The notes beneath the pieces were generated by a model. That model was not told the DNA's origin and searched no databases. It worked only from the letters and a program-made list of their open reading frames with translations. Shown one piece after another: positions 19,009 to 44,000 of a DNA stretch of 64,000 nt. Positions within the stretch are counted from its first letter, which is position 1; each line of letters begins with the position of its first letter. This DNA comes from Schmidtea polychroa. Lineage: Eukaryota. The DNA lies in the NCBI GenBank assembly GCA_044892525.1, contig JBJFYX010000024.1:248001-312000 (forward strand), in the 5' to 3' direction. The position numbers were made by a program, and so were the translations under genes.

Positions 19009-19928
19009 TGTTTAATTCGAGGTTCGGGTCTGTGTGCGCCTTTTACTATCCTTGTGTTGTTGGCTGTGGGCGCACACAGACGCATATAGTTGTGGGTGTG
19101 GTTTGGCTTTTTTCTATCGCGTCTGTGTGCGCGGTCTGGTTAGACCGATTCTTGTTGGTGTGCGCACACAGACGCGAGAAGTAGGTTTTGATTAATTGTT
19201 AATTTTTATATGATAAATGGTTTTTGGCAGAAATTCTGGATTTTTAATTCGAATTGATTTGTTTTAAATTGGTTTGTGATTGGTGGAAGTTTAAAAAGGG
19301 CTTTCGGTTCTGGAACAAGTTTCTTTGTTAAAATGGCGTTTATTTCATGGATGAAATATCATTTTAGTGATGATTCTGATAGCAAAATTGAGATTTGTGC
19401 CAATCCTGAAGATTTTGAGATGTTTTTAAGAAAAATTCCATCAAATATTAATTACCCTTCTGTATTGTCAAATAATCGGACAGCAAATTGTGAGTTTGCG
19501 CTCCTCGTGGTCAAATGTAATCTACTACAATCTTCTGTAGAAATGCCTTCTAATACAAAATTGTTTTGGAATTTATTAGATGATAACAAAATTCAATATA
19601 TTGCCTCATCTATGGTTGATGTTGACGGATCTATGATTTACAAGTTACGCAATATTGCGAGTCTCAATCCATCATGAGTTCAATTAGCAAAGGAAACGAG
19701 ATATTTATGCATTGTGGCTACAGGAAGAATTTCTTCTACTATAACGAGCAATGTGATAAAATCAAACTTAGACTTTATGAAATCGGATTATGACTTAAGT
19801 GATGATGTTTATGTAAATTATGATTTCGAACAGATCATTCAATGCTGTGAAATTTTGTTGCCACATAGAGCCGACTCCATCGAGTCTATTTCAAATAAAA
19901 TTGTTATTCGTTCAATTCGATTAATACA
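19009..19928 (+). repeat. BEL 5' LTR
   Basis: TGTTTAATT...ATTAATACA; TATA-like motif near 19206 and AATAAA at 19894. Confidence 0.97.
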
Positions 19929-19946
19929 TGGTAGCAGAGCGTGGTT
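19929..19946 (+). promoter_or_regulatory. Primer-binding site, initiator tRNA-Met type
   Basis: TGGTAGCAGAGCGTGGTT immediately after the LTR, followed by an 8-bp hairpin TTCCGGCT-AGCC-AGCCGGAA. Confidence 0.85.
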
Positions 19947-20277
19947 CCGGCTAGCCAGCCGGAACAAGGTAATTAATATGTATTATAAAATGTCTTTTTT
20001 GGTTTTATATATATTATGTAAATATTATGTGTATTATGTGTTTAATAATATTTTTGTAATTAATAATATTTTGGTAATTAATATGTATTATAAAAAATCT
20101 TGTTTGTTGTCACGCATATTATGTATATATTATAATACTTTTGTAAAATTAAACATCCTCCCTTCCCTACCGAGCGTGGGAAAGTGCTGCTATGGGCCCC
20201 AGCACTCTTTTAAAGGGGGAAGCCAGGGGAACAGGGTAAAGAACAAAGCTGAGTCAAGGGTGAGGGCGAGCGGGGTA

Positions 20278-22218
20278 ATGGGTTTTGAGTTGCGATGGGA
20301 AAGTCAAATATTTGTCAAAACTCTTACTGGTAAGACAATTGCTCTGGACGTTAAATGGAAGGACACAATTGAAAAGATAAAAGGAAAAATCCAGGACAAA
20401 GAAGGAATTCCGGAAAATTATCAAATGTTAGTATACGCAGGAAAGCAGTTAGAAAATAAAAGAAGATTGAATGATTATAGGATACAAGTAGGGTCGACAC
20501 TTCATTTGTCACTCAGGCTGTGCGGGGGCAATGATAAAGAGATTTTAGAAGAAGGACTGTGGAAAAAGAGAATGAAAAAAGGAAAATTAACGAGATTAAG
20601 AAACAAGATTCTCAATGATATAAATGGGAAGGATGTTAGCGAATGGTTGGCGGAATATGAAGATCAAAAGGAGAGTCTAGATGAAGAATTAGGGGATCTG
20701 AGAACAATCAGTAAAAAATTGCAAAGATTGGACATCACTGCAATCTTAGATAAAGACCTGCAAGAGATCGAGGAAAAACATCAAATAATTGGGGCATTGA
20801 TGGAAAGAAGAGCAAATCAATCTTTTATGGAAGAGAAGGAAAATGTGAATGATGATACCATCAAGAAGAATAATTCCGGGCATAAAAGAAAACTGGAAAG
20901 TCTACAGAAAATTACAATCCCTGTTTTTGAAGGCAAGATGAAAGAGTACGAACCATGGAAAGCAGCTTTTACTGCATGTGTTGACGAAGCGGAAGGTGAT
21001 GAGGTTGAAAAGATGTTTCACCTGCACAAGTACCTTCACGGAGAGCCATTAAAGTTAATTGAAAATCTTGGATATTCGGCAGAGGCTTATCAAATGGCAA
21101 AAGAGAAGTTGGATAGGCGATATGGTGGGGATGAAAGGATATATTTATCAATGTTAGAGGAGATGGAACAGTTCAGGCCAATTCGAGAAGGAGATTTGAA
21201 GGATCTAGACTCATTTGTTGGATTATTAGAAACGGTCACCGTGCGATTTAAATCCACTGGGAAAGAATCCGAGTTAAAGACTGGCTATCTTTTTCAAAAG
21301 TGTTTGGGCAAGTTAACGACGAATCTTGTGTATAAATGGAAAAAAGACAAAATAGAAAAGGAATTGCGGGAGACGATAGAGGATTTGAGAAGATGGATAC
21401 AACAAGAAGCAGAGATCCTAAGGTCCACTAACGAGGTTGTGTATGGGACTTAACCAAGCACCAGGGCTTATGATGGGTCAAGAGTAGAAGGGGTGTCTAG
21501 GGGAAGAGAAAGATTCAATCCTGGAGGTCGGACGCATTTTACGGGGCAACCAGATGGCAGAGTTAAAAGTGGAACAGTTATACAGGTGAATAACTCTAAC
21601 GGCTATAGATCAGATTGTGTACACTGTGGTGGTCAACATTACCTAGACCAATGTGACAAGTTCAAGCAACTCACAATTCCTAAAAGGAAGAAAGTCATCG
21701 AAGAAAAGAAACTGTGCAGGAATTGCTTCAAAAGAAATCACATGGCCAAGGAATGTCGTAAAGAATCTTTCTGCAAGGTTACCGGATGTAAGCAAAGGCA
21801 CAACGAATTATTACATGAAAGACAAATTAGTGAGGAGAGTGAAAAAGGTAACAACACGATGCTGACCCAGAAAGGGATGAACGAAAAAAACCTAAGACCT
21901 TACCTTAGTTTAAGAACAATTCCAATCTACCTGGAAAATGGGAGCAAGAAAATAAAAGTCAATGCACTGTTAGATGATGCAAGCTCAGTAAGCTACATCA
22001 ATCTAAGAATTTTAAAGGAGCTTGGGTTAAAAGGGGTGGAAAAGAGGACACCGATAGGGGTTATCGGAGGTAATGTCCAACAAATGATGGCTACTCCAGT
22101 GACCATGAAGTTAATTAGTAATGACGGCCGATTGACGAAAAACTTCAACGCACTGGCCGTAACAAATATCACGGGAGAAATGAAGGTAGTAAATTGGGCC
22201 AGAGAAAAACATAAGTGA
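20278..22218 (+). pseudogene. Ubiquitin-Gag-protease part of the BEL polyprotein (stop at 21451)
   Basis: Ubiquitin domain 20305-20529 ([10 protein letters not shown]...LRLCGG), BEL Gag core ([20 protein letters not shown]), triple Cys-His knuckle, and aspartic protease ALLDDASS. Confidence 0.92.
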
Positions 22219-22245
22219 ACTCACCTGAAGGGCATCCATTTTCCG

Positions 22246-25200
22246 ATGCTAGACGAGAGACAGGCAGTTGAAGTGTTAATTGGCGCGGATTATTTTACGC
22301 TTCAACGAGCACTCAAAGAAATCGATGGTAAGTTGGATGAACCGATTGCCCGTTTAACGCCACTTGGCTGGACATGTGTGGGAAGAACCTCGGTGGGAAG
22401 AACTTGGAACCATCAAAGCAATTTCATACGAACGTTCTTCGGTAATGGCGAGGATTTGCAACGACAGATGGAGCGATTTTGGGAAATTGATGATAGCGGC
22501 TTAAAGGAAAATATATTTGCAGCGAAAGACCAAGCGATTTATGAGAAAACCAAATCTGAGATGAAGAAAGTAGACGGACATTTCGAGGTAAAAGTGCCAT
22601 GGAAAGAGTCACCAACAGCTTTGCTCAATAGTGAAAAAATGGCAGAAAGTCGACTGCGAAGTTTGGACAAGAGGCTTGAAAAGGAAGACTTACGAACTGA
22701 GTATCAGGATATTTTGAATGGTTACCTGAAAAAAGATTATATAAGTATTGTAAAAGAGAAAATGATGCCTGGAGATTCGGAATGGATATTACCACACTTT
22801 CCCGTGGTTAGAAGAGATAAGGACACCACGAAAGTGCGTATTGTGTTTGATGCGGCAGCCAGGTGTAATGGGGTGGGACTTAATGATATGGTGGAAGTTG
22901 GCCCAAAATTACAAAATGAAGTTTTTGATATTTTAATTCGTTTTCGTCGATTTTCCGTAGCTGTTGTTTGTGATATAGCAGAAATGTATCTGCAAATAAG
23001 AATGGCTCTTGAAGACAGGAAATATCATCGGTTTTTATGGTCAACTGGGGGGAAAATTATTAAGTATGAGTTTAATCGGTTAGTGTTTGGTCTTAATGCA
23101 TCTCCATTCCTTGCCCAGCTAGTCGCGCAAGAGAATGCAAAGAAATTTGAAAAGGACTACCCAAAAGTGACAGAATCTATTTGCAAGTCTACGTATATGG
23201 ACGACACCATGGACTCTGTTGATTCTGAAGAAGAAGGAATGAGGCTGAAAGAGGGGCTAGAAACAGTTTGGGGCAATGCCGGAATGCGGCCTAGAAAATG
23301 GCTGTCCAACTCGGAAAGAATTATGGCGACAATCCCAATTGAAGAACGAGCTAAAACACTGAATATTGAAAAGGAAACGACAATGGCCGTCAAGACCCTA
23401 GGTTTGAAATGGTACTCGGAAGACGATGAATTTAGTTTTCAAGTAGATCTGCCGAATGAGGAATGTTTATCGAAAAGAAAGGTATTGAGCATAGTGGCAA
23501 GAATCTTTGATCCATTGGGACTGGTAGGCCCATTCATAATCATAGGGAAAAAGATTATTCAGAAGTTGTGGTTGTCAGGGCTTGATTGGGACGAAAAGCT
23601 ACCTCCAAAGTTGAATAAAGAAATACACAAGTGGGTAGAGGACACAAATAATCTCGGAGATCTGCGAATTGCGAGATGTTTAAGGACTCAAATGAAAAAT
23701 GAATGGCAATTACATGTCTTCTCCGATGCGTCAAGCACCGCATATGGGTCAGCTATATATCTACGGGAAGAAACTATGGTGGGACCTAAAAGTGTGTTAA
23801 TTGCGTCAAGGGCAAAGGTAGCTCCAGTGCAAATTATAAGTATACCAAGGTTGGAAGTAATGGCCGCGTGTACTGGAGTTAAATTAGCAAGACGGGTTTC
23901 AGAAGTGCTCGGGAAACCGATGAGTGAGATATGGTTCTGGTCCGATAGTAAAGATGTAATACATTGGGTTCGAAATTATTCGAGACTATTCAAGCCATTC
24001 GTAGCTAATCGAATTGGGTTCATTCAAGAAATGACCAAACCTGGGCAATGGCATTATGTTCCAACAAGTGAAAATCCATCGGATTTGATCACAAGAGGAT
24101 TATCGGCATCGGATTTGATAAACAGCACCATGTGGTGGGAGGGACCGAAATTTCTACTAGAACCAAAAGGAAATTGGCCAGCGACGGAGTTAAACCAATC
24201 CAATGTAACAAAGGAGTTTGGAAAGGGAATAACAATGATGGCGTGTGTAGAGGGGCAAAGACGAATAGGGAACACGGACTGTTTCAAAGTAGAAACCTTT
24301 TCCTCATGGCAGAGATTGATCAGGGTGCGGGCCTGGGTGGAGCGATTTATTTTGAACACGAGAACGACACAGTCCCAAAGAACCACAGGGCAACTGACAA
24401 CTGAGGAGCTTAAAAGAATGGAACTCAATGTAATTAAAGGAGAGCAGGCGAAGTTTTTCTCTGAGGACCTGGCACGACTTATCAAGAATGAAAGGGTAGA
24501 TATCAGAAGCCGTTTGTTAAAGTTGACACCAGTTTTAGATGAGATGACTGTGTTACGAAATAATAGCCGCATAATTCATGCAAAGAATTTACCATGGGAG
24601 ACAAAATATCCAATAATTCTATCGGACAAGAGTTGGGTCACCAGACTAATCATCAAAGATTGCCATGAAAGTTTGAGCCATTATGCAGGAACTCAACATG
24701 TCTTAAGTGTGTTGAACGAAAAATATTGGATTTTGAAGGCCAAAGTAATGATCAAACAATGTGAGACAGATTGCGGAATGTGTAGAAAAAGAAAAGCTAA
24801 AGGAATGAGTCAAATAATGGCACCGTTACCGGCGTTCAGGGTTTCAGAACCTTTTAGAGCCTTTGTTCACTCGGCAGTAGATTTTGCAGGACCGTTTGAA
24901 ACTAAAGTAGGCAGAGGAAAGGTGAGAAATAAAAGGTACATTTGCCTATTCGTATGTTTAAAGTCACGGGCGGTGCATATTGAAATGGCATATGGGTTGG
25001 ACACAGACTCATTCATTCGAGCGTTTATGAGGTTTGCAGCGAGGCGGGGGATGCCAAAATTGATGATCTCAGACAATGGCACAAATTTCATAGGCGCCAC
25101 TTCTACAGTAAAGAATTTTGTAATCGACAACTATAAAACTCAAAGAGAGTTGTCGAAGCATCAATGTAGTTGGATCTTCAATCCTCCATCAGCACCGCAT

Positions 25201-25806
25201 TTTGGGGGAGTTTTTGAGTCCATGATCAAATCGGCAAAGCGAGCTATGAATGCCATACAGACAAGTGCAGATGTGACCGACGAAGAATTGGGAAATGTTT
25301 TGACAAGGGCTGAAATGTTGATAAATTCTCGGCCCTTAGTGGTTCAGGCAGTAGACAGTAAGGAAGACGCTGTGCTAACTCCAAATCATTTATTAATTGC
25401 CGGTTGGAAAGGAGAAGCTGTGGAAAATATAGAAGGGAAGAAAATGTCATGTACGGTGTTTCGGTGGAGACGAATTCAGGAGTTAACCGAGCACTTCTGG
25501 CGGCGATGGATGAAAGAATTGGTCCCGTGCTGGCGGCAAAGGGCGAAATGGAATAAGATAGAAGATGATGTCAAGACAGGGTCAACAGTGTGGGTTTTAG
25601 ACAAAAGGAATAAGTATGGGAAGTGGCCAATGGGGAGAGTAATCGAAGTGATACCGGGAGAAGACGGAAAGCTACGCGTGATGAGGATAAAATGTGAAGG
25701 AAAGGAGGTATTAAGATGCATGTCTAAATTATGCTTGATCACAAAAGAAGAAGTTAATGGGGATGTGAGATTGACACCAAAGTGTCAAGGGGGGGAGGAT
25801 GTTTAA
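22246..25806 (+). CDS. pol: BEL Pol: RT, RNase H and integrase (in frame with Gag; separated by TGA at 22216, probably formerly TGG)
   Basis: DIAEMYLQI, YMDD, LHVFSDAS, H-H-C-C, DFAGP, SDNGTNF, GGVFES and WRRIQELTEHFWRRW. Confidence 0.97.
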   Translation: MLDERQAVEVLIGADYFTLQRALKEIDGKLDEPIARLTPLGWTCVGRTSVGRTWNHQSNFIRTFFGNGEDLQRQMERFWEIDDSGLKENIFAAKDQAIYEKTKSEMKKVDGHFEVKVPWKESPTALLNSEKMAESRLRSLDKRLEKEDLRTEYQDILNGYLKKDYISIVKEKMMPGDSEWILPHFPVVRRDKDTTKVRIVFDAAARCNGVGLNDMVEVGPKLQNEVFDILIRFRRFSVAVVCDIAEMYLQIRMALEDRKYHRFLWSTGGKIIKYEFNRLVFGLNASPFLAQLVAQENAKKFEKDYPKVTESICKSTYMDDTMDSVDSEEEGMRLKEGLETVWGNAGMRPRKWLSNSERIMATIPIEERAKTLNIEKETTMAVKTLGLKWYSEDDEFSFQVDLPNEECLSKRKVLSIVARIFDPLGLVGPFIIIGKKIIQKLWLSGLDWDEKLPPKLNKEIHKWVEDTNNLGDLRIARCLRTQMKNEWQLHVFSDASSTAYGSAIYLREETMVGPKSVLIASRAKVAPVQIISIPRLEVMAACTGVKLARRVSEVLGKPMSEIWFWSDSKDVIHWVRNYSRLFKPFVANRIGFIQEMTKPGQWHYVPTSENPSDLITRGLSASDLINSTMWWEGPKFLLEPKGNWPATELNQSNVTKEFGKGITMMACVEGQRRIGNTDCFKVETFSSWQRLIRVRAWVERFILNTRTTQSQRTTGQLTTEELKRMELNVIKGEQAKFFSEDLARLIKNERVDIRSRLLKLTPVLDEMTVLRNNSRIIHAKNLPWETKYPIILSDKSWVTRLIIKDCHESLSHYAGTQHVLSVLNEKYWILKAKVMIKQCETDCGMCRKRKAKGMSQIMAPLPAFRVSEPFRAFVHSAVDFAGPFETKVGRGKVRNKRYICLFVCLKSRAVHIEMAYGLDTDSFIRAFMRFAARRGMPKLMISDNGTNFIGATSTVKNFVIDNYKTQRELSKHQCSWIFNPPSAPHFGGVFESMIKSAKRAMNAIQTSADVTDEELGNVLTRAEMLINSRPLVVQAVDSKEDAVLTPNHLLIAGWKGEAVENIEGKKMSCTVFRWRRIQELTEHFWRRWMKELVPCWRQRAKWNKIEDDVKTGSTVWVLDKRNKYGKWPMGRVIEVIPGEDGKLRVMRIKCEGKEVLRCMSKLCLITKEEVNGDVRLTPKCQGGEDV
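25787..25799 (+). promoter_or_regulatory. BEL polypurine tract
   Basis: A/G-only run (AAGG...GGAGGA) directly before the 3' LTR. Confidence 0.85.
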
Positions 25807-26719
25807 TTTGAGGTTCGGGTCTGTGTGCGCCTTTTACTATCCTTGTGTTGTTGGCTGTGGGCGCACACAGACGCATATAGTTGTGGGTGTGGTTTGGCTT
25901 TTTTCTATCGCGTCTGTGTGCGCGGTCTGGTTAGACCGATTCTTGTTGGTGTGCGCACACAGACGCGAGAAGTAGGTTTTGATTAATTGTTAATTTTTAT
26001 ATGATAAATGGTTTTTGGCAGAAATTCTGGATTTTTAATTCGAATTGATTTGTTTTAAATTGGTTTGTGATTGGTGGAAGTTTAAAAAGGGCTTTCGGTT
26101 CTGGAACAAGTTCCTTTGTTAAAATGGCGTTTATTTCATGGATGAAATATCATTTTAGTGATGATTCTGATAGCAAAATTGAGATTTGTGCCAATCCTGA
26201 AGATTTTGAGATGTTTTTAAGAAACATTCCATCAAATATTAATTACCCTTCTGTATTGTCAAATAATCGGACAGCAAATTGTGAGTTTGCGCTCCTCGTG
26301 GTCAAATGTAATCTACTACAATCTTCTGAAGAAATGCCTTCTAATACAAAATTGTTTTGGAATTTATTAGATGATAACAAAATTCAATATATTGCCTCAT
26401 CTATGGTTGATGTTGACGGATCTATGATTTACAAGTTACGCAATATTGCGAGTCTCAATCCATCAGGAGTTCAATTAGCAAAGGAAACGAGATATTTATG
26501 CATTGTGGCTACAGGAAGAATTTCTTCTACTATAACGAGCGATGTGATAAAATCAAACTTAGACTTTATGAAATCGGATTATGACTTAAGTGATGATGTT
26601 TATGTAAATTATGATTTCGAACAGATCATTCAATGCTGTGAAATTTTGTTGCCACATAGAGCCGACTCCATCGAGTCTATTTCAAATAAAATTGTTATTC
26701 GTTCAATTCGATTAATTCA
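25800..26719 (+). repeat. BEL 3' LTR, containing an uninterrupted ORF of about 200 codons from ATG 26124
   Basis: Direct repeat of 19009-19928; ORF track 26067..26747. Confidence 0.97.
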
Positions 26720-27236
26720 AAGTGTCTTAAGAACACTTTTGAAATAAAATAGAAAACTCAAAAATTACTAATTATTTAAAGTATGAAAATAAAACTCAAA
26801 ATAATAATTATAAGTATTATTAAAATATGCAAATAAAATATTAAATTAATTCTTGAAATAACAGCTGCCCTAAAAATTTGTATAAATAGCGACAAAAAAT
26901 TAGTTTTAGCCGCCCAAAAATCTTGCGAAGAAATTCTTATTCAAAGGTTAATCCTTCGAATAAATTAATAATTGAATCAGCACAGAAAGATTCACACACA
27001 AAAGAAACTTGCTAAGATATAACACGCATATATAACAAATAACAAAAACATATTTTTTTCACACGCATTTCAGTGGAGGATATTGATAGATAATTGTCAA
27101 CCCTTTTAGAATTGGAAAAATTGTGTAGATTTGGTAATTTTTGATCATAATAAATTTTTATATACACATATTTGTTCTGTTTTGATATATATAAGAACCA
27201 GCAAGTTGAGTGTTCCCGAATATCGAGACCTCAACA
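26720..27236 (+). repeat. Gypsy 5' LTR, right part
   Basis: Matches about 37551-38067 with 3 substitutions seen; ends GAGACCTCAACA. Confidence 0.95.
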
Positions 27237-27238
27237 TT

Positions 27239-27256
27239 TGGTGCCGCGAACCGGGA
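27239..27256 (+). promoter_or_regulatory. Gypsy primer-binding site (tRNA-Phe/His-like)
   Basis: TGGTGCCGCGAACCGGGA two bases after the LTR end; the cognate tRNA is uncertain. Confidence 0.75.
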
Positions 27257-27475
27257 CTTTAAAATCAATTATTGTTATTCACAATTTGGGGGATAGGAAT
27301 TGAGATCAGAGGGTTATAGTATTTTATATTGGGAAAATATATTTATAAAAACAATATCATTGATCAATTTTAAATAAATAAATTCAGTTTTGAAAATTAT
27401 TAAATAATTTATAAAGATAAAATAGATAATTAACCCGAAATAGTTTACAATCTCAGAAATAGAATAGTCTATAGG

Positions 27476-30106
27476 ATGAATAATAATAATAATTACATAA
27501 AAATTTTACCAGTAGAACCATATAGAGGAGAGCCTGAAAAGTTCGTTGATTTTTTCACTGAGATCGCTCAGTATGCAGAAGCTTGTGGTTGGACACCTGA
27601 TGAGTTAAAAATGAGAATCCCACTATATCTAAAAGGTTATGCGTTACAGGCATACAATAACTTAGAATGTAAAGGAAATAATTTTGATCAGCTCGTAAGA
27701 TATCTGAGAGCAGAAATAGTAATTGATAGCGATTTACAAAAGATAAATGTTCAAAAATTTAGAAACAGATACCAAGGTACTAGAGAATCAGTTGGTGAGT
27801 ATGTATATACGATTACGGAGTTAGCGAAAAAGGCATTTGGTGCAGGCGAGCACACAGCAAAATTAATTGAGGATCAGTTTTGGAATGGTATACAAAAATA
27901 ATATGGTAATTTAAATGAATTAGTTCATAAAGCTAAGCGTATAGAAGCAATACAACGAGATCGGTTTAGTTCACATGTAGATGCATTAGAAATCCAAAAA
28001 CCCATAGAGGTAAAATCTGAGTTGGGTAAGTCTGATGACAACATCCCCTGGGAGGAGATGAAACAACTATATTTGAACTTTGTAAAAAATAGACGAAGGG
28101 TAAGCCCGAGTCCGGATAGAAGTCAATCGCCTGAAAACAGGAGGAGATTTGATAATGCGAGAAACAGAAACTTTGAGAGTAGAAACAATAGAAATACTTT
28201 TGATTGAGACAATCGTTATGAATATAATAGAAACAATTATACGAGAGATAATCGAGTCGATTTTAGTAGAAATAATTTGAGAAATAATAAATATGATAGA
28301 AGTAATAGATATGATAATAGAGATAATACAAATGATTTGAGACGTAGACAGACAAGTCCATATAGACAGAATTCATATAGAGAAAGGCGAAGAAGCCCTT
28401 ATAATAATGATGGTAGAGATAAAGTAAATTTTAATGGACAGATCAAATGTTACAATTGCCAAAAATATGGTCACTTAGCTAAAGTATGTAATAATGCGCG
28501 AAGCGAATCGCCCAATAGAGTGAGATTCAAAAATGAGCCTGAGATAAAACAGATTAATAGTGCTGAGTTGATATCAGCTAATGATGAAATAAACAGTTTG
28601 AGAGAGGAATTAAAAGAATTTAAAACTCAATATGGGAGACTTATTGAGAGAAAGTTAGAAATGTCATTAAACGAGTTTCAGTGTTTCACCAATGATGTAG
28701 ATATAGATAATGATGAGTTTCGTGAAGCAAGAGAAGCGGATGAAAAATTTCTTGCAGAAGCAAATAGATGTAAAGAATTAAAAGAGGAATTAAAAGAGAC
28801 ATTACAAAAATGGCCTTATGATGATAATGAGACATTGCGTATAATAAATAGAGTTCAAGTCGAAGGAATTGACTTAGAATATTTGAGAAATTTGATACCA
28901 CTAATGGTAAAGAGACAAAATATGACAAGAGTATTTGAATTAGAAATAGAATTGAAAGAAATGATAAAATGTTATGGTGAATTTGTGAGAAAAAATCAGA
29001 AATTACATGAGTCATTGAATATAACTATTGAGGCAAAGGACCTTTCGAGATTATTTATGCGTAGTACAGGGGTACATGTTTGCACAAAAGTGAATAAAGT
29101 AAAACAGATGGCCAGAGCCAATTGGCCCGAGAAATTGGGAGATAATGATAAAATGAAACTGTATTTTAACGGGGTAGAAATGATGAATAACGAATACATA
29201 ATAGACTATGGGGTAAATGTTATTGATAACAATATTATTTCGGCCGTAATAGAAAGGCAAGAAAGTAAACAAATTGATACACCAACTCCATCAGTAGAAT
29301 TGAGTATAAACGATGAAAATGACTACGACAAATTATTTAGATTATGGGATGCTTCTTCAGGAGGAGCAATGAAGTCACCAACAGCTAGCGATGAAATCTT
29401 TAAACCTATTGATACTAAATATGATAATTTACATGAGACAATAGAAAAAATTGCGAAACAAGCAAATATGCAGGATGCAGAGACGATGAGACGAGGTAGA
29501 GGAAGGCCTCGAAAATCTGAAATAGCCGAAAAGTCAGATGACAGAAAGGCAGCAGAGCGTTTAAGAGATATTGCAAATAATATGAGACAGGAAGTCCCAA
29601 AAAATCAGGATAATGACAAAGATATAAAGATGATAACAGAGTTAGTTAAAGCAATGAATATGAGACGATTTCCGGAAGCAAAACCATCAGCGTTAATGGA
29701 AAATATAGTTAAAAAGATTAAATTAATGGAAAAAGAGATTAGAGAATTGAGTGCAGAGGAAGCGAATGAAGAGACAGTGTTAAAAATATTATTTACAACA
29801 GGAGTTAATCGGGATAAAGTGATTACGGCGATGGCATATCTAATAGCAAGATACAAGAAACTTTTGCGATTGAATCCAAAGAATCAGATAGAAAATATGA
29901 TATATGATAAATTAAAAATAGACGCTATGCCATGGATAAAATTAAAGGGAGGATGGAAAATACTGTATGATGAGAGTCTAATCGAAAGTGTTAAGGAAAG
30001 CGTAGGAGACAATATTAATGTAGAAATAGATGATACGGAGGAGACAGTAAAAAATCTAGTAAATAAAACAACTATGGGACCAAGTCAAAAAGAAAGGAAG
30101 TCGACA
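27476..30106 (+). pseudogene. gag: Gypsy Gag with CCHC knuckle plus long accessory spacer (UBL-like domain, AT-hook); in-frame stops at 27899 and 28205
   Basis: PYRGEPEKFVDFF...YLKGYALQAY capsid region, RS/RN-rich linker, CYNCQKYGHLAKVC and RRGRGRPRKS, all in one frame. Confidence 0.85.
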
Positions 30107-31230
30107 ATGTCAATAGTAATTATAGTAATAACGTTATTGTTAGATCTGATAAAAGGAAATAATGCGATCATAGCATATGACTGTCAGAATCCCAAGTGGG
30201 GACAGAAATATTCATTATTAGATGTAGAAAATTGCCCAGAGGCCAATCCAACAAAACTAATTGTTGCAGATCCAAAGATTTTTCACATATATCAAGAGTC
30301 TGACTTCATTCACACTGAGGCAGGAGAATGTATCGTTAAATATTCAGAGGAAAGTTTTGTATGTAATAAAATAGCGAGAACAATATTAACTCCAACATGG
30401 GCACCAGAAGCGATAATAATAGCACCAATCGAATGTGAAAATGCATTTAAGACAAAAAAGATAAAAACGCCGGATGGATTTGAATTAAATGCTCAGGTAG
30501 GAGCACGAGTAAGACAATTAGTAAATGTCGTCGGATGGTCATCAACAGGAGGATATTGTGAAGGAGGAACGTATAAAATATGGGGGCATGTAGCAGACAA
30601 TATTGTAGTAAGACGACAATATTACATTGAATTAAGGAAATTCAAGGCGTCATTTGATAGTTCATCAAAGAAAATGATGACACATAAGTTCTGTACATTA
30701 GATGAGACAAGCTGTGATACAGGTGAGTCAAGGATCATATACAAAGTAAATAAATACGAATGAGAATTAACTGAACTGTAAAAAAAGTTAGAATTTCAGG
30801 AAGTCAACGAAATGGATAACAATGGGATGTATACGAGAGAGGCGATAGAGAGCGCCAGAAAACATATGCTATTTCCTCATGAAAAAGAAAAAGTTCTTTC
30901 TATTATGGTAAACAAAATCATCGAGAATAGTTATGGAGGGAATTACAACTTTGATGTATTATTATCAAAAGAGCACTTCAAGAAAGTTGTATATAGAGTA
31001 TTATACAGCATATGGGGATATTTTGCGATTCTCGGAAATACGTTTTCCACTATTTTAGGTATATATTATACAGTAGCACTACTGAAAATGATTTGTTCAT
31101 CATTAGTTTCATTAAGACAACTGAGACAAGTTTTTGGTAATTCATATAAAATGATGGCATGTTTATGTCCATTCATAGCGAAATATCTGATCACTGCGAA
31201 GCACGACAAAGAAATCAAACGGATGAAAAG
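30107..31230 (+). pseudogene. Chuvirus-like envelope glycoprotein, internally deleted, in frame between Gag and protease
   Basis: Signal-like MSIVIIVITLLLDLIKG, then AIIAYDC...YSLLDVENC...CEGG...CTLDETSCDTG; C-terminal GMYTREAI...MLFPHEKEKVL...WGYFAILGNTFSTILGIYYTVALLKMI hydrophobic block; stops at 30761 and 30779. Confidence 0.75.
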
Positions 31231-31479
31231 TCGAAGGGAAGAGGGTGAAATAATGATCACCAATGAGAGAGATGACGAGGCAAACAAATCAGAAAATATT
31301 GAGCAACCACATATTGGGTTATATGATAATCAAAGAGAACAATTGACAGAATTGAGAAATAATATTGAAATTAGAATCCCAGGTGAAAATGGTAATTGTC
31401 ATTGTATTCCAAGGAAAACTTATGGATGTTACGGGTTAGAACTTGACGATTTATTAGAAGGGTTAAATGAAGCAAGACC

Positions 31480-34400
31480 TAAACTAAAAATAGTGATAAA
31501 CAATACGATAATAAAGGCATTATGTGACACAGGAGCAGCAGCTTCTATGATTCGTGAAGATCAGTTAACCGAAAATCAAAAGAAAAATATCGTGATTACA
31601 AGAGATAGAGTAATTTCATTATCATCACACTACATACCATTAAAAGGCGACATCGAATTAACAGTCCACTTTTCAGATCAAGTGATTGAACATGTCTTCA
31701 AGGTAGTAGCAGAATACAAATGCATGTGTGTCCTTGGGATAGACATACTCAAGAAGTTAAAAAACTGTGTAATCGATTTAACGGATAGTACAGTTAAACG
31801 GAAAGCAATATATCAAGACGCAAGATTTACTGAGGTAATTGTATTAGAGACATTCGAACTAGAATATCAAAGTGATCATATAATTCCAGTAAAAGTTAAT
31901 GTTAAAAGTGAGGACACTTTCATTTTCGAGCCTGAAACGGGAATATCACGAAATCATAATGTAATGTTAACAGACGAGTGTGTAATTCCAAATAATGGGA
32001 TAATTCCAATAAGAATCGCGAATTACGAAAGTAAAAATTCATAAAGGTACAAAATTGGGAAAGTTGTTCAAAGGTGAATTAGAGCAAACATTTGAAGTAT
32101 GTGAGATGTCGATGACGAGTGATGTCAGTGAAGGAATGGTCGAACAGAGTAGAACGAATAATATTAAATTTTATGATAAAATTAAAATAAATAATAATTA
32201 TCTAAACGAAAAACAACAGCTACAACTACAAATTTTACTTGACGAATATAGTGATGTTTTTGCAAAACACGAATTTGATTTAGGAGATACTGATATTATC
32301 AAACATGTAATTGAAACGGGGAATGCTAGACCAATAAAACAGAGACCCTATAGTGTACCATATAAACTGAGGGAAGAGATAAAACGACAAATTAAAGAAT
32401 TAAAAGAGGCAGGCGTAATAAAACAAAGTTTTTCACAATGGGCATCTCCTATTGTACCAGTTAGAAAGAAAGACGGGGAAATTCGAATGTGTATTGATTA
32501 TCGTAAATTAAACGATGTAACAGTAAAAGATTCTTACCCATTCCCGAGAGCACAAGAACAATATGATAAACTTAGGGATACTAAGTATTTCACAGTAATA
32601 GATGCAAATAAAGGTTACATGCAAATTCAAATGGAAGAGGGGGATGCGGAAAAAACTGCTTTTGTGATTGAGGATGGTTTATACGAATATACAAGATTAC
32701 CGTTTAAGTTAACTAATGCGCCAGCAACATTTCAACGTTTAATGAACACAGTATTAGTAGATGTACAACATTGCGCAGTATATATGGATGATATATTAAT
32801 TTCATCAAAAACATTTGAGGAACATCTAAAAGATATAGCTAATGTACTAGAAAGATTAAGAAAAGCTAAAATCAAAATAAAACCCACTAAATGTAAATGG
32901 GCAGAACCTTCAGCATTATTTTTAGGACACATAGTTACAGTAGATGGTATAATACCTAATCCCGATAAAATTGAAGTAGTTAAAAAATTTCCAGTTCCAA
33001 AAACATTACAACAAGTACAGGAATTTTTAGGTCTCACAGGATATTATCGTAAATTCATACAAGATTATGCAAAAATAGCAGCACCACTAATTGAATTAAC
33101 AAAAGGAGTCAAAACAAAGGGAGAGAGTAAGGGAGTGTTAATAGTACAGGAGATTAACGATAAAATTAACAAGCCACAAAAGAAATGGAAAGACGAACAT
33201 CAAAAAGCTTTTGATCAACTAAAAGAAAAATTAATAACAGCACCGATACTAAGGTACCCAGATTTTAAAAAACAGTTTATTGTCATGACAGACGCCAGCG
33301 GGAAGGCCGTAGGGGCAGTCTTAGGACAAGAAGAGGAAAAGGGTAAAGATTATGTAATAGGTTAAGCAAGCAAAACATTAAAAGGAGCACAGATTAAGTA
33401 CTCAACAATTGAGAAAGAGTGTTATGCTATAGTTTTTGCATTAAAACAATTTAAGCCATACATATATAAAACTGAAGTAGTAATTAGAACAGACCATAAG
33501 CCATTAGAAGGGTTATGGAAACATAAAGATACATCCAGCAGATTGTTAAAGTGGGCAATGAAAATACAAGACATGCACATAAAGATTGTATACAAACCAG
33601 GCAGAATAAACAGGAATGCAGATGCATTATCACGAATTCCAGAGTTGGGAGCACTAGAAGTTTTTGCATTAGTAACTGAAAAACCAATAGAAATGTATGA
33701 GGAACAAATGAAAGACCCAGAACTCTTCAAAATAAGAGAGGAAATAAAAAAGGGAACTAACCAAAAGTATAAAATCTGTAAGAAGTTAATTGTTATTGAG
33801 GATTTTAGCGGTAAACAATTAATAGTAGTACCACAAAGATTAAGACAAATTCTTCTATTACAATATCACGATGGTGCTCTAGGAGGTCATTTATCAAGTA
33901 GGAAAACAGCAAGCAGGTTGATGCAAAAATATTATTGGGACGATTTAAAAAAAGATGTTAAGAGATAGTGTAATGCATGCACAATATGCGCAACTAGAAA
34001 AAATACAGGAACAAAGACCTTTACATCCAATCCCAGCTACAACATCACCAATGGAACTGTGCGCAATGGATTTTTTGTGTAAACTACCCACAACAATTAA
34101 CGGGAATAAACACACTAGTTTTTAGCGATTACTTCACAAAATGGGCAGAGGCATTTCCTACTAAAGATGAAACAGCAGAAACAGTGGCAAAATTACTTGT
34201 AGAAAAAATAATCTTTAAAATCGGTACACCGAGAAAACTATTAACAGATAAAGGGAAAAATTTCATGAGCGAAACTATAAAAAGAGTAGCTAACATATTT
34301 AACATGCATAAAATAAACACTGATGGCTTAGTGGAAAGATTCAATGGGACATTGCTAAGTAGATTAGCCGTGTTTGTGGGAAAAAACCAAAATGATTGGG

Positions 34401-34912
34401 ATGAATACGTTAATCAATGCACATACATTCATAATATCACACCAAATGAGACAACGGGATATTCACCATATTTTTTAATGTTCTTAAGAGAGCCTGCAAC
34501 ACCGATTGATACAATTTTTGAACCTCGAGTATCACAATATTTAGATGCGCCAGATTATGTAACATTAATGCAAGAGAGACTACAAGATGTATACAAAGTT
34601 ACAAATTTAAAAGTTAAATTTAGACAAGAACAGTATAAGGCAGATTACGATAAAAATAGCAAACCTCATAATTTTAAAGTGGGAGATAAGGTTAGACTTA
34701 TGTCTCCACAAGTAGGTAAAGGTAAAACAACTAAATTAGCAAGACCATTTAAAGGACCATACGAGGTAGTAAAAGTAGTACATGAAAACCTGCATTTACA
34801 AAAACATAAAAATGAAGATCCTATAATAGTACATGTTAATAGATGCAAACTAGCAGAAACAGAGTTAGTAGAAAAACCACCTCACAAATATGGATTACGA
34901 TCACAAAAGGCA
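31480..34912 (+). pseudogene. pol: Gypsy protease-RT-RNase H-integrase, with several stops and frameshifts
   Basis: LCDTGA, WASPIVPVRKKDGEIRMCIDYRKLN, YMDD, TDAS, TDHKPL, HDGALGGH, LTDKGKNF, GLVERFN and FKGPY. Confidence 0.95.
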
Positions 34913-35743
34913 CTGATGATGGCAGCGACATTTTTAACAATTATAGGGTTGTGTAAATCAACTGAAGTAGAAAACAAGACCATACACTCAGTAGAATACA
35001 TGGCTGAAGATATTTTAATCAATATTTCACCGTATAAAATTAGAGTATATAACTTAAATAAATCACCAATAAGAGACTTGTATCTGGAAACTGGGGATAA
35101 TATACCCAAACTTATGAAAAAAATTGAAAATAGATCAACTAATGAATTTGAAAGAGGAGATAGTGTCGAATTCAGAGATCTACAACCCAACACCAATTAC
35201 ACACTTTGTGCACAATGGAATACATTAATTGACACATCACAGATAAGGTGCAAAAGAATAAAAACTACTAAAATAAACAGATTTAGAATAAGAAAACCAA
35301 AAAGAAAAAAGATATCAACAACCAGAAAAACAACTACTGTAAATTCAACACCCACACATCCTATATCACAAACGATAACGAATATATATAGAAAAACGAC
35401 ATTTAAAGCGATTAGACAAATATATAAAAAATTAATAATGAAAAATCCAAGACAGTCTGATAGGTAACTGATAAAATTACCTACAGGAAAACCGATAGTT
35501 ATAAATAACTGGAACGAATTACAAGTCTTTCAAAAGAAAACAAGTAAACCACAATGGCCCTTTTATGTAATAGCTACAAGTGTATTATTCGCGATTTTAG
35601 CAATTGTCACTAGTGTACAAGTTTATAAAAAGTACAGGTGGAAAAGGCAGCGGTATCGGCACCGACTGTTCAAGGAAGCACCAGGGCATTTTCACTTGGA
35701 CAAATATATCCCTGGACAATATACTCTGTCCACACTGGTATAA
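34913..35743 (+). pseudogene. Type I membrane protein module fused after integrase: signal-like segment, FN3-like domain, Thr-rich stalk, TM and basic tail (stop at 35465)
   Basis: LMMAATFLTIIGLCKS; FRDLQPNTNYTLCAQW; STTRKTTTVNSTPT; WPFYVIATSVLFAILAIVTSVQVY KKYRWKRQR; same frame as integrase. Confidence 0.6.
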
Positions 35744-37253
35744 TAACTTAAAAAAGTTTAATTATGTAAATTGGTCAATGATATATGATAAAAGTATATA
35801 TATTTATATAACTGCGTATAAGGTTAAACCTCAAATGCGCAACAAGCATAAATATTCATTGTTTGTTTTTAGAGTAATAATAAGAAGCCTATTCAGCCAA
35901 TTGAAGCAACTCAATCAAATCGATCTCCTAATAAACCAATCGAATCAGCCTAATCAAATAACCCAAATCAGTCAATCAAATCAATCCAATCAAGATAATA
36001 ATCATCTCTACCAAATCAATCTTCATACAAACAAATCAATGCACCCACATACGTCAGTTCACATGCATTCTCAAAGAACAAAACCTCAGCGAAATCCTGA
36101 AACTCAGAAAATAAGGCAATATGTGCCGATGTTACAGAAACACTACCACAGTTTCTATAAAAACCTGCAAAACAAGATCAGCACAGATGGCACTCCCATT
36201 ACTATTAGAAGCTTCCCCAACCAAGTATGCATTCCTAATGATATGAAAATCGAGATAGAAGAAAGGGAATTGCATCTCATCAAATTTAACGAAGCAAGAA
36301 GAGTCAAATTAAGAGAATTAATCGGGGCATATGACAGATTCCCCAATGCAGAGGAAGCTGCAAGAACTAGAAAGAAAGTACCCCATAGAATTTTATTTCA
36401 TATCACAAAAACAGAGGTAGCAATATGCCAACAGAGAATACCAATAATCACCACGAGCAATTGCACCATAACAATAAAAACTACAAAAAATGATCGAAGT
36501 GTCCCAAACGACTACAATGAATTGATAGTCCAAATGAACAGCCTACCCTGTGTCATAGCGATCGAAATATTATACATACCCACTATCCCAAATCCATTTC
36601 AGCAGTTGGAACTCATCAAGTCAAACATTTATATGCATGGAGATTTCATCAGAAAGAAAATGTCATTTACCCACAAAGAATTATCCACGGCAGAGAGACA
36701 TCATCTGATAATGTTTGTAGATGCAAATTTTGTATGCGACATCAACAATAACTTAAGGCCAGTGGAGGTCAGCATACGGAATTTTAAAGGTGTAACAATA
36801 TTTGATGAGAAAATTACACCTAGAACGAAAATCCTACATTATTATCCAGAGAAGACAAAGGCCAACAAGGAAAATATCATCGGAAATAAAGATGAATACG
36901 AAGCACTGGTCGAAATCCAACAGTTACTTTGCGGTAAAATAGTCGTAGAATTTGACATCATCGGGAAACTCAAAGCTCTCACATTAGATCTGTTGAATGT
37001 TATGGGAGTTAGAGAAATGTCGGAAGATATATTTATGTGCTCGTTCGTCAAAAACGTTGCGCCACACAAGATAAAATTGTCCAACCTGGCATACCAGGTA
37101 ATCAGACATCACAGAAGGTGGGACAAAGATAAACGTATCAATAGAATGATACGAGAACCAGAACCATTCCCAGCATGGCAAACCACAATGATCGTCAAAG
37201 TGATATACGCAATCGTAGAAAATCAATGGGAAGAAGTTGTTAAATGGGATTGA
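35604..37253 (+). CDS. Gypsy ORF3: Q/N-rich N-terminus and C-terminal DEDDh (REX4/ISG20-like) exonuclease-fold domain with degenerate catalytic residues
   Basis: 549-codon open frame (true start uncertain); IMFVDANFV...VEVSIRNFKGVTIFDEKITP...LVEIQQLLCGKIVVEFDI...LKAL parallels the REX4 family pattern. Confidence 0.6.
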   Translation: MSLVYKFIKSTGGKGSGIGTDCSRKHQGIFTWTNISLDNILCPHWYNNLKKFNYVNWSMIYDKSIYIYITAYKVKPQMRNKHKYSLFVFRVIIRSLFSQLKQLNQIDLLINQSNQPNQITQISQSNQSNQDNNHLYQINLHTNKSMHPHTSVHMHSQRTKPQRNPETQKIRQYVPMLQKHYHSFYKNLQNKISTDGTPITIRSFPNQVCIPNDMKIEIEERELHLIKFNEARRVKLRELIGAYDRFPNAEEAARTRKKVPHRILFHITKTEVAICQQRIPIITTSNCTITIKTTKNDRSVPNDYNELIVQMNSLPCVIAIEILYIPTIPNPFQQLELIKSNIYMHGDFIRKKMSFTHKELSTAERHHLIMFVDANFVCDINNNLRPVEVSIRNFKGVTIFDEKITPRTKILHYYPEKTKANKENIIGNKDEYEALVEIQQLLCGKIVVEFDIIGKLKALTLDLLNVMGVREMSEDIFMCSFVKNVAPHKIKLSNLAYQVIRHHRRWDKDKRINRMIREPEPFPAWQTTMIVKVIYAIVENQWEEVVKWD

Positions 37254-38067
37254 GAAGCCTAAACAATCTGTGCATATTTTATCTTTTATTACTATTTTAT
37301 TTTCTGAATATTTATGTAGAATGCTGTATGATCAATATTTTATCGGGTGTATGTATTTAATAGATTTTATTAGTTAACCTTTTAATATAATCGTATACAA
37401 GGGGAAAATATTTTAATAATTTTTAATTCGATATTTAATAACAATAAATTTTAAATTAACTTTAAATTCGATATTTTCTAATAACGATTTCTTTAATAAA
37501 CAGCTGAAAAATTTTATTCATAAACAGCTGAAAAAATTTTTAGAATTAATAAGTGTCTTAAGAACACTTTTGAAATAAAATAGAAAACTCAAAAATTACT
37601 AATTATTTAAAGTATGAAAATAAAACTCAAAATAATAATTATAAGTATTATTAAAATATGCAAATAAAATATTAAATTAATTCTTGAAATAACAGCTGCC
37701 CTAAAAATTTGTATAAATAGCGACAAAAAATTAGTTTTAGCCGCCCAAAAATCTTGCGAAGAAATTCTTATTCAAAGGTTAATCCTTCGAATAAATTAAT
37801 AATTGAATCAGCACAGAAAGATTCACACACTAAAGAAACTTGCTAAGATATAACACGCATATATAACAAATAACAAATACATATTTTTTTCACACGCATT
37901 TCAGTGGAGGATATTGATAGATAATTGTCAGCCCTTTTAGAATTGGAAAAATTGTGTAGATTTGGTAATTTTTGATCATAATAAATTTTTATATACACAT
38001 ATTTGTTCTGTTTTGATATATATAAGAACCAGCAAGTTGAGTGTTCCCGAATATCGAGACCTCAACA
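37238..38067 (+). repeat. Gypsy 3' LTR, lacking about 230 bp present at the start of the 5' LTR and carrying a 25-bp duplication
   Basis: Purine run GGGAAGAAG then TGTTA at 37238; homology to the 5' LTR starts at 37259. Confidence 0.85.
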
Positions 38068-38640
38068 TATGCAACCCAGGAAGAGTTTTTAAACTTATCT
38101 GCGAGACTATTTTTTTGATCAACCATAAAAATTTCGACTTCAGTTTTGAGAGTCCATACTCGATTTAGTACATTTCCGCGAGAGAGCCACCTTACTTCTG
38201 TATAATGAAGTAGGTCCATATATTCAGCTTCACCGTCCTGACATGATTCACGAAATAGCTGCGTGTTTAGTGCATGTCCCTTGATAAAATTTACAATCTT
38301 GATGACATCATGCATGACGGCTGCAGTGTAGGTTCTAAATACTTGACCATAAGGGCCTGGCGATGGATCATACCGTGAGTAATTTCAATATTTGGGTTAT
38401 TCTTTTTTACGAAAGCCGAAAAACAATTAATATGACCCAGCATAGCTGGAGCTCCATCCAAAGATACAGGAATACAGTTTTCCCATTTTAAACATTGCGC
38501 ATTAAAGTATTCATTTACTTTATTGTAAACATCAATTCCATGAAAACACACTGTGGTTTCATTGTACCATTGTCTTCTATTTGTGTAAAACCGTAATTAA
38601 GGAATTCGTCTTGTTATGTTCTTTTTCTATTTGCTGCCAT
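38068..38640 (-). pseudogene. hAT (Buster/Charlie-like) transposase, N-terminal half, internally deleted
   Basis: MAANRKRT*QDEFLNYGFT...KPQCV, SLDGAPAMLG, HGMIHRQAL, TEVRWLSRGNVL and SSWVAY at the junction. Confidence 0.85.
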
Positions 38641-41074: not shown

Positions 41075-44000
41075 TCAGTTTAGTGTACCACGACAGCCGA
41101 CACTTCCACACAAACAAGGTATCTTATCTTCTTCGTAAGGAAATTTGTAGTCGTATGTGATTTCTTCCATAATGTTAATTTGACGTTTGGAGTATATAAC
41201 AATTTTCTTTTTCCCATCAACTGTAATTACTCTGGCTATACAATTAGGCTAAACACAACAAATTATAAATTTATTGGGGGCAAAATATTAAAGAAATATT
41301 ACTTGGCAACTGTGATTAATAAATCTGGCATTACTTCCATACATTGTTGCGTCAATAACTAAATCATCGTCTATGCGAAATAAGTAAGAACTTCCGATTC
41401 CCTTGTCTTCATACTTTTTTTCTCTATATTCAGCAAGAAATTTTCTTACTACTTGGCCGACATATTCAATAACCATTTCGTCAGGAGCAATTGTTTCTAA
41501 GGCAACTAGGCCCCACGCGTGAATTCCTGATTTTGCAAATGTCATCAATTTTTTTCTAGCCTAAACAATTTTATATTATTTGTTGAAAGTTTGCCAGCAG
41601 CCATTATGAATGCAAATGAAACTAATTTTTATAAAAAAACAAATGACAAAATATTTAATTATAATTTATTGAAATGTTAAAAAATATATAAATTTTAAAT
41701 TATAAATAAAAATTTCTAATAATCATTCTTTTTTAAAAACAATTTTCAATAATCAATTATATTTAAACTTAATTTATTGTTAATTATTGTTAATTGAAAG
41801 AGAGACTGTTGATAAGAGACTGTTGATAAATGTATGAATAATGCTAAGGATCGTAGTATGAATGAATGTAAATTGACCGATATGTCGAATGATGTAGTGA
41901 ATATGAATATTGATACTAACAAACAAGATGAGCCAAAATATACGATGGTATTGCCGTATTTTGAAGGATATAAAGATTTCAAAAGAAAGATTGTTAAACA
42001 GTTGGGTACTTTGAATTATAGAATTGTTTCAAAATCGTGCAAAGTACGAAGTATGTTTGTTAGTAAATCTCAAACGCCGGTTGGATTGTGTTCGGATCTC
42101 GGTTATCAATTCACATGTAATGGGTGTAATGCCACATACATTGGAGAGGCTTCCCGTCATCTCTGTACTCGAGTTTAAGAACACTGTCGACCGAAGGGAG
42201 TGTCCAATATGAGAGAGAATTATGAGAGAATTAGGAATGTCTGATTTTAAAATCTTATCAAAAAATTCTGATAATTGTTTTGAGCGTGTGATATGTGAAG
42301 CATTATTGATAAGAACTTTTAATCCTAAAATCAATGGGCAGAATGCAGTGTTGAATGTTTTTAATTAACTTTTTGTATGTTGATGTATATTAATAATAGT
42401 TATGTTAAATAATTAAAAAAAATAATTAAAATAATATTTTTAATAATTTTAAAAGTTTAAATATAGTTGATTATTTAAAATTGTTTTTAAAAAAGAATGA
42501 TTATTAGAAATTTTTATTTAAAATTTATATATTTTATAATTTGTTTATATATTATCAATATAGTGAATATATATAAAGTTGAACGTAGCCGCAGTAATTG
42601 TAGTAATTGGTGTACTTTTCCCCATCCTATGGTTTGTAAAATATAAATCCTTTAATTTTTAAAATAATTTATTACTCAACTTATAAGCTGTCCGTTATAA
42701 TCACTGTTTAATCAAATAAACAAATTATCATTAATGGGTATTGTTCATTCTCTTTTTATCGATAAAAACCCGGCAATAATTTTTTAAAATATCTGAAAAT
42801 ATCCTAGAATTAAATATATTTTGAATTTTCATTGCGATGTAATTCTGGATTAATAAATGAAAATGAATAAGTATACAACATACATAGCATACAAGCTGTG
42901 CCAAATTGTATTCAATTTCATATCTGTAAAAATGTAAAAGACCTACGAACCGAAAGCATTGTTTATCTTATATATTGAAAATAGAGTAATACTCAATTGT
43001 TAAATACAATTATTTTGAAATGAAGCTATGAATCCACCCAAAGAAATTTTTGTAAATCATATACTACAAATTTTAATTTCATAGAAAAGACGTATTTTTA
43101 AAATTGTAGGTTTATGTTTAAAAATTTTAAAAGTACTGAATAATATAAATTTTTTTTAGTTGTATCATGTACAAAATACTGAATTTTCATACATTTATAC
43201 CATTTCCCATTTAAAAGTAAATTTTTCCCATTTAAAAGTATAGTAATTTAAACAAAAATTATTTATTATAACAAGTAAATATAATTAAACAAATATTATT
43301 ACAAGGTTCATAAGTAAGCATTAAATTTTATTTACACGTGATGGTAAGGCAAACCTGCAGCTGCATTTGTTATATTTCTAGACATTAGCCTAAAATATCC
43401 TGCTGCATCATCAGAAGTCACTTGTGTTGATGCATTAGTAATCATTTGAGATAGATTTCCAACATTTTCTGTCCTTAACATTCCACGCACAATACTTTTT
43501 ATTTTCGAAAAAGCGGATTCAATCGGATTAAGCATGTAGGAATATGGTGAGAGAAAATGATAAGTATATCCAAAAGAAGCCACAATTCTTGCGAGATCAC
43601 ACGGTTTATGAATTCTTGCGTTGTCAAGAATTAAGCAAATATTATCCATCTTTTCACATTTTTCAATTGACAACACAATTCTTCAATGTATATTGAGAAA
43701 ATGTTACCTGTTACAGTTGAATTAGTAATTACTTTGTGGTAATGCATACCATTTATGCCCATACTTGCAAGCATACTCACAGATCTACCTCTCACAGTGG
43801 GAATTACAATATTTGCCAACTTTTGATCTCGCCATGGTTCTTTTTAAATGCAAATTGAACGACGACTCATCAATGAAAACAATTTTGTTGTGATCAACAC
43901 CATATGCCTCGTTGAACCAAATTGCATATTCCCTACGCTTTTCAATTGAAATTGTAGCATTTACTCGATCCAACTCACGATGAACCTTTTTCATCGTAAT

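Follow-up and report, generated by a model that had tools for sequence, protein, structure and literature searches.

A multicopy planarian Ty3/Gypsy family with a class III-like glycoprotein homologue encoded in frame between Gag and protease

The retroelement Burro1 encodes SUMO-like and BCL2 domains and, in the same frame, an env with matches to mononegavirus glycoproteins ahead of the protease (PR), and was described as the first case of an env located between gag and pol (Arkhipova & Yushenova 2019, PMC6431247). Burro1 is reported to be transcribed upon loss of PIWI (PMC8532177). Ty3/gypsy elements with this GAG-ENV-POL order and an envelope of the glycoprotein B (gB) type have since been described in Platyhelminthes, Nematoda and Bryozoa, including six from Schmidtea mediterranea (Chary & Hayashi, eLife 2026, PMC13524379). 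In that account, the GAG-ENV-POL groups do not form a single pol clade and the mechanism by which gB-type retroelements enter cells without gD, gH or gL is called unknown. Non-canonical metaviruses of nematodes, in which the env-pol order is flipped through capture of an RNA-virus glycoprotein, have also been reported (Sacco et al. 2022), as has the capture of chuvirus glycoproteins by BEL/Pao elements, including the Anakin elements (Dezordi 2020, PMC7642597; Dezordi 2023). Here, we describe a decayed Ty3/Gypsy element, and the family to which it belongs, in a planarian DNA stretch of 64,000 nucleotides (contig JBJFYX010000024.1, positions 248,001 to 312,000), referred to as the window, whose own coordinates are used below. 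A first-pass annotation had recognized in it a Gypsy element with a chuvirus-like glycoprotein (G) between Gag and protease, and implied that this gene order was new, taking the env of Gypsy errantiviruses to be a different protein behind pol. This premise is out of date in view of the published GAG-ENV-POL Ty3/gypsy elements, and the implied novelty falls with the in-frame env between BCL2 and PR published for Burro in 2019 and the GAG-ENV-POL elements catalogued in 2026. The gene order is already published and the window family is one more compact member of a known set.

The reading of the frame itself was sound. In the window copy, the signal-like segment (30107), the AYDC motif (30173), the YSLLDVENC motif, the hydrophobic block (31052-31108) and the DTG of the protease (31526) all lie in one frame, which is that of Gag. 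This order, gag-G-pro-pol, is normal for the family, both in intact copies and in a survey of copies identified by their reverse transcriptase (RT). A search for G across the same genome (781 Mb) produced 2,108 candidates; 150 of them were scored, and these yielded 151 matches to G. The intact members that the annotation had suggested looking for were found: each of the 8 fetched copies, which were chosen for their long frames, has one frame of 3051-3090 codons that includes G. Uninterrupted copies measure 13.4-13.8 kb (7 copies), have long terminal repeats (LTRs) of 1.1 kb and encode one protein of ~3,030 amino acids, with the domain order Gag, SUMO-like, Bcl-2-like, signal, G, transmembrane helix (TM), PR, RT, RNase H, integrase, signal, FN3-like, stalk and TM. 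Pfam detected the zinc knuckle, Bcl-2-like domain, G (E 1.7e-87, profile positions 4-636 of 653), PR, RT, RNase H and integrase in the two copies searched. The pol domains are of the Gypsy type (RVP, RVT_1, RT_RNaseH_2, H2C2 and rve), without the Peptidase_A17 or DUF5641 that are both present in a neighbouring BEL element. Together with TG..CA LTRs, a short target duplication, a primer-binding site and a polypurine tract (PPT), the last of these seen in other copies, they bear out the earlier assignment to Gypsy/Metaviridae.

Amongst the best 99 of 150 RT matches, 92 have G upstream of RT, 81 of them at a distance of 2.9-3.2 kb. Of the other seven, four are truncated but retain some of G, two have each undergone one large deletion, the breakpoints of which differ, and one is degraded. 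No clean G-less empty site was found amongst them; the intact copies without G that the annotation had named as evidence to the contrary did not come to light. In subfamilies at 87% and 73% G identity, and in further families at 38-39%, the order is kept as far as it is preserved. LTR pairs are 97.9-100% alike in all 7 copies, six of which are flanked by 4-bp duplications whilst the seventh lies in tandem. Multiple near-identical uninterrupted copies, one of the features by which gB-type GAG-ENV-POL elements are operationally recognized, are present, the window copy itself being broken. The family, a planarian Ty3/Gypsy lineage, is young, multicopy and recently active, and belongs with the Burro-related elements already known for the GAG-ENV-POL order.

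The chuvirus-like character of G, claimed from motifs, is upheld by Pfam, structure and profile searches, which found full-length homology to the Chuviridae glycoprotein. A profile search with G collected 2,559 relatives, and a sequence search of the PDB with the G alignment gave no match. For the AlphaFold model of G, the best PDB matches are herpes gB (Foldseek E 1.7e-12), the best matches amongst viral models are the G proteins of chu-, qin- and xinmoviruses (E 3e-35), and comparison with VIA retrieved gB, rabies G and thogotovirus Gp with Z of 6-7 (root mean square deviation 5-6 Å over ~220 residues for gB). The ectodomain of the copy examined contains 14 cysteines. Across relatives G is bounded by one signal and one TM, the latter preceding PR, and a pattern of basic, hydrophobic and small residues typical of a signal stands before [AGV][YF]DC in 15 of the 15 proteins shown. 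In four unsaturated pairs the dN/dS of the G ectodomain is 0.03-0.08, that of RT being 0.00-0.07 within the family. On its predicted structure, G is a homologue of the gB-like class III fusogens, with a fold match at the level of domains, and is under purifying selection.

The histories of G and RT were compared in trees, the RT tree having been built after 18 rows (tandem gene models, partial or distant rows) had been dropped and one added back. For 20 elements, each of the nine RT splits with strong support is found again in the G tree, and the two trees nowhere conflict strongly (Mantel 0.71); this agreement argues for an old association in which G was inherited with pol. The RT of the family falls within a group of 26 rows, of which 23 have G before RT and 3 are N-terminally incomplete, and lies amongst Gypsy-type polyproteins, far from BEL RT, in a tree without named reference elements. 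Gypsy-borne G forms one group (support 99 in the first G tree, a 100/100 branch in the second), apart from stand-alone G proteins, of which 45 of 117 were used in one tree and 15, including two named chuviruses, in the other. The BEL-borne P0013, the single BEL/Pao G sampled, likewise falls apart from it, in keeping with the earlier distinction between this G and those of BEL/Pao elements. Since the G trees are unrooted and Gypsy-borne G stands outside the sampled chuvirus G, 'chuvirus-like' is an apt description, but a chuvirus as the specific donor goes beyond this support. With G upstream of RT in 92 of 99 copies, a dN/dS of 0.03-0.08 and divergence in step with RT, G has long belonged to the family as a functioning component and is no secondary insertion.

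A second membrane protein is encoded in the same frame behind the integrase. By hydropathy, two or more hydrophobic segments follow the integrase in 18 of 20 G-bearing polyproteins, compared with 2 of 22 G-less ones. The ectodomain between them is FN3-like, with a weak Pfam match and a model that scores a Z of ~8 to FN3 domains, and is followed by a Thr-rich stalk; the protein has five sequons. Its signal and FN3 parts are under purifying selection (dN/dS ~0.15-0.2), and the protein is mostly unalignable between families. Co-folding of G with this protein gave a score of 0.11 (mark 0.34), which speaks neither for nor against binding. Downstream, a second open reading frame (ORF2) is kept as a protein and has an ISG20-like domain match (E 5.7e-4), Pfam giving no family in three copies; Atlas matches for ORF2 and for the FN3-like part, all under 0.9, are leads only. 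Taking the ExoI and ExoII catalytic positions to be where we presume them, the domain has other residues in place of the second ExoI acid and the ExoII aspartate, and because of these two losses it is probably inactive and nucleic-acid-binding. ORF2 and the LTRs occur in two types, and the synonymous distance of copy L022 from L025/L027 is uneven (G 0.25, RT 0.05, tail 0.42-0.46), which together suggest recombination between subfamilies. Searches of the literature on these elements turned up neither the post-integrase membrane protein nor the ISG20-like ORF, nor a four-pass topology, although figures, supplements, Grohme 2018, Sacco 2022 and Repbase may describe them; the words 'fibronectin', 'exonuclease' and 'polyprotein' are absent from the main text of PMC13524379.

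Taken as a whole, these observations are probably best explained by a GAG-ENV-POL family in which G is a working fusogen, the polyprotein passes the membrane four times and particles bud with an envelope. The threaded polyprotein had been anticipated by the annotation, and hydropathy agrees with it. In this scheme the polyprotein would be threaded four times through the membrane of the endoplasmic reticulum (ER). Gag would remain cytosolic whilst the internal signal directs G to the lumen, where signal peptidase would free its N-terminus, and the TM of G would bring PR and Pol back to the cytosol. The second signal/TM pair would yield a small, variable luminal or surface protein, and the protease of the element would release the cytosolic parts. 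With Gag and Pol tethered to a membrane bearing G, capsids could bud as enveloped particles, which G would then fuse with further cells of that animal, for instance its stem or germ cells. Several points weigh against this scheme. The steps of expression, processing, particle formation and fusion are predictions from sequence, and the four-pass topology is read from hydropathy, not from a trained predictor; the second signal of L022 falls below the hydropathy threshold, and the 18 of 20 polyproteins with post-integrase segments are related sequences. The model of G is middling (pLDDT 65, pTM 0.43), its whole-chain TM-score to gB is 0.21 and its VIA Z stays under 8, whilst the FN3 model is of low confidence (pLDDT 43). 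In the copy examined, the ectodomain of G lacks any N-glycosylation sequon, and the RT group holding the family has an SH-aLRT of only 87.

Other explanations of the same frame must be set beside this scheme. Retroviruses and Drosophila errantiviruses produce Env from a spliced mRNA, and the 1:1 output of Gag, Pol and Env expected of a single polyprotein is unusual; both points favour a view in which the long frame exists, yet Gag-Pol and G are translated apart, in the retroviral manner, from mRNAs that are spliced or internally initiated. Yet in all 28 of the G-before-RT polyproteins found, an internal signal directly follows a Gag/Bcl-2 region read in the same frame, and the tail of G runs on in frame into PR. 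A G that was spliced out would not need continuity of frame on both sides, so splicing is disfavoured and, although a main rival, we consider it unlikely. One of four contig runs (X1), whose RNA nature is a guess, has coverage in 30 of 30 bins with no G-skipping joint amongst those listed, and carries no weight either way.

The other main rival retains the polyprotein but denies G any present role in entry: G would do no more than anchor Gag and Pol at the ER and so gather them for assembly inside the cell. It draws on the lack of an N-glycan sequon in the ectodomain examined, on two copies (L090 and L091) from which most or all of G has been deleted, and on the fact that both particles and entry by G are predictions from gene content. 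However, constraint on the whole ectodomain of 530 codons, cysteines included, equals that on RT, more than a mere anchor would call for, and the G-deleted copies are single, differ in their breakpoints and have not given rise to expanded subfamilies; the chances of this explanation appear slim. Finally, the broken G of the window copy, and the reported frequency of chuvirus-G fragments beside LTR elements in insects (Dezordi), might suggest that G came into one or a few copies later on, as a stray piece of viral sequence. This has already been refuted by the copy survey and retains practically no probability: G occupies the same position in 92 of 99 copies, in the subfamilies at 87% and 73%, in the families at 38-39% and in public relatives, it is under purifying selection and the RT and G trees are congruent.

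Within the preferred scheme of a threaded polyprotein and enveloped budding, a further suggestion concerns the protein behind the integrase. It is possible, although doubtful, that in Burro-type retroelements the one four-pass polyprotein supplies a two-component envelope, in which a conserved class III fusogen before the protease would be partnered by a variable type I membrane protein behind the integrase, FN3-like with a mucin-like stalk in this family, serving attachment or tropism. If so, G and the post-integrase protein would parallel the herpes gB with gD/gH-gL, signal-peptidase processing as in flaviviruses would be a feature of a reverse-transcribing element too, and an answer would be at hand as to how gB-only elements enter cells. 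The post-integrase membrane protein may thus be an overlooked candidate partner of the gB-type fusogen. The compact family of ~13.5 kb, with its strong selection on G, offers a tractable flatworm example for the question of entry raised in PMC13524379.

With the elements of that paper the window family shares the gene order, a gB-type env bounded by signal and TM, multiple copies and co-divergence of env and pol, so far as they are described there. The G stretch listed for Smed_errantivirus_3 agrees with that of L022 in 203 of 246 residues by hand count (~83-85%), and the window family is accordingly a sister of the listed element and not that element itself. A second family in the genome (L059-L063, at least 17 kb) corresponds to Smed_errantivirus_2, the listed stretch of which agrees with the G of L059 in ~245 of 251 residues, also counted by hand (~98%). 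Such likeness to published Schmidtea elements would make the host a planarian of that genus; should the host species differ from the published one, this match could hint at recent cross-species spread. With Burro1/GYPSM1 and Burro2-4 the family has in common SUMO-like (a weak match here, E 0.038), BCL2, env and PR domains in one frame. Burro elements exceed 30 kb and encode 4,873 amino acids, whereas the window family, at 13.4-13.8 kb, ~3,030 amino acids and one zinc knuckle, falls short of giant size. Pfam found no dUTPase, MATH, BIR or ankyrin domain in the family, the published Burro calls having come from HHpred, and a stretch between PR and RT, at the position of the Burro dUTPase, is conserved.

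The G of Anakin-type BEL/Pao elements is homologous (25% over 604 columns to the BEL-type P0013, probability 99.9), but these elements have a BEL/Pao pol, carry G behind the integrase and, in the tree, have their G placed with stand-alone proteins of the chuvirus type, and the window family differs in all three respects. The nematode metaviruses of Sacco 2022 have a similarly flipped env-pol order in a different phylum. In the rotifer elements Juno and Vesta, a DEDDy exonuclease or a small transmembrane ORF3 is reported (Rodriguez 2017, PMC5408684), so that there too pol is followed by accessory ORFs for exonuclease-like or small membrane proteins. The exonuclease-like domain of the window family is, however, ISG20/REXO-like and seemingly inactive, and its membrane protein is fused in frame to the integrase, beside a full fusogen.

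The window copy occupies positions 18488-38067, all of its features lying on the + strand, and is flanked by a 4-bp TATG duplication (18484-18487 and 38068-38071). The left piece of its 5' LTR (18488-19008), which begins with TGTT, is separated from the right piece with the CA end (26725-27236; 99.4% to the 3' LTR) by a distinct BEL/Pao element (19009-26719, +) with 920-bp LTRs 99.2% alike and a 5-bp AAGTG duplication. A TGG motif resembling a primer-binding site (27239-27256) recurs after the LTR in other copies. Gag (27476-28489) has a capsid-like region and a CCHC zinc knuckle (28448-28489), with two in-frame stops, and is followed by a cytosolic spacer (28490-30106) comprising a charged helical region, a weak SUMO-like match and a Bcl-2-like domain (~29693-29956). 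Pfam scores the latter at E 0.0074 here and at E 7.5e-6 in an uninterrupted copy, in which the SUMO-like PF11976 match is weak (E 0.038). The signal-peptide-like segment (30107-30172), a putative cleavage region identified by hydropathy, leads into the N-terminal part of the G ectodomain (30173-30763), which ends at a stop, and the stem, TM (31052-31108) and cytosolic tail of G follow at 30782-31309. The aspartic protease (31469-31762; RVP E 4.6e-7) lies in the frame of G. RT, with YMDD at 32781, and RNase H (32460-33572) have a frame change upstream and a stop within; the integrase, with H2C2 zinc finger, core and C-terminal part (33828-34900), is broken, as is the frame of the post-integrase membrane protein (34916-35698), which consists of a signal-like segment (34916), FN3-like domain, Thr-rich stalk, TM (35555-35626) and short tail. 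ORF2 (35601-37253) is shortened from the ~700 amino acids found elsewhere, with its ISG20-like exonuclease domain starting at ~36717, and the 3' LTR (37259-38067) has lost its 5' part.

The missing middle of G, noted at the outset, is real: PF24664 (Monjiviricetes_fusion) matches profile positions 5-207 before the break (E 1.5e-16) and 464-636 after it (E 1.1e-29), and comparison with all 8 fetched copies puts the loss at 756 nucleotides, in frame, with a 15-nucleotide overlap at 30763-30777. The damage was otherwise understated: gag, G and pol all contain stops (in-frame stops end at 27901, 28207, 30763 and 30781, and pol has additional stops as well as changes of frame), and the copy no longer has the end of ORF2, the PPT or the beginning of the 3' LTR. 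The window copy cannot make the polyprotein; since its LTR pieces are near-identical (99.2-99.4%) and its frame is damaged, it is young but dead. Amongst 20 loci the short G junction occurs only in this copy and in L011, L003 having the long form with both anchors. The window locus (G000:C24) is present twice in the assembly, again in G000:C2 near 12.17-12.19 Mb, where the 3' LTR is 100% identical and G lacks the same segment, and this second occurrence (L011) is probably a duplicate haplotype contig.

Other arrangements were seen amongst further polyproteins. In six more distant Gypsy polyproteins (P0046, P0057, P0067, P0099, P0117 and P0128), a Cys-rich region that ends in a TM lies immediately ahead of PR, and the five whose sequence is complete at this point also have a signal-like segment in front of it. 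The Cys-rich regions are alike amongst themselves and weakly like the G profile, their RTs lie outside the Burro-type group, and they probably represent other GAG-ENV-POL clades of PMC13524379. P0044, a chromodomain Gypsy polyprotein, has a rhabdovirus-type fusion domain (PF00974 E 7.5e-6) in frame behind the integrase, and the relatives P0004, P0009, P0010 and P0016 contain 2-7 aspartic-protease-like domains per polyprotein, some behind the integrase. In the window itself, Rfam and tRNA scans of the 64 kb gave no match. In the young BEL/Pao element at 19009-26719, a ubiquitin domain (PF00240 E 3.9e-22) precedes the BEL Gag in the same frame. Probable host exons with a weak N-SET match, suggesting a Set1-like gene, lie at 48050-49801 and 52127-52969 (-), a paired/HTH transposase-like fragment at 43788-44480 (-), and long inverted repeats, probably MITE-like DNA elements, at 5857-6547, 41681-42542 and 46731-47781.

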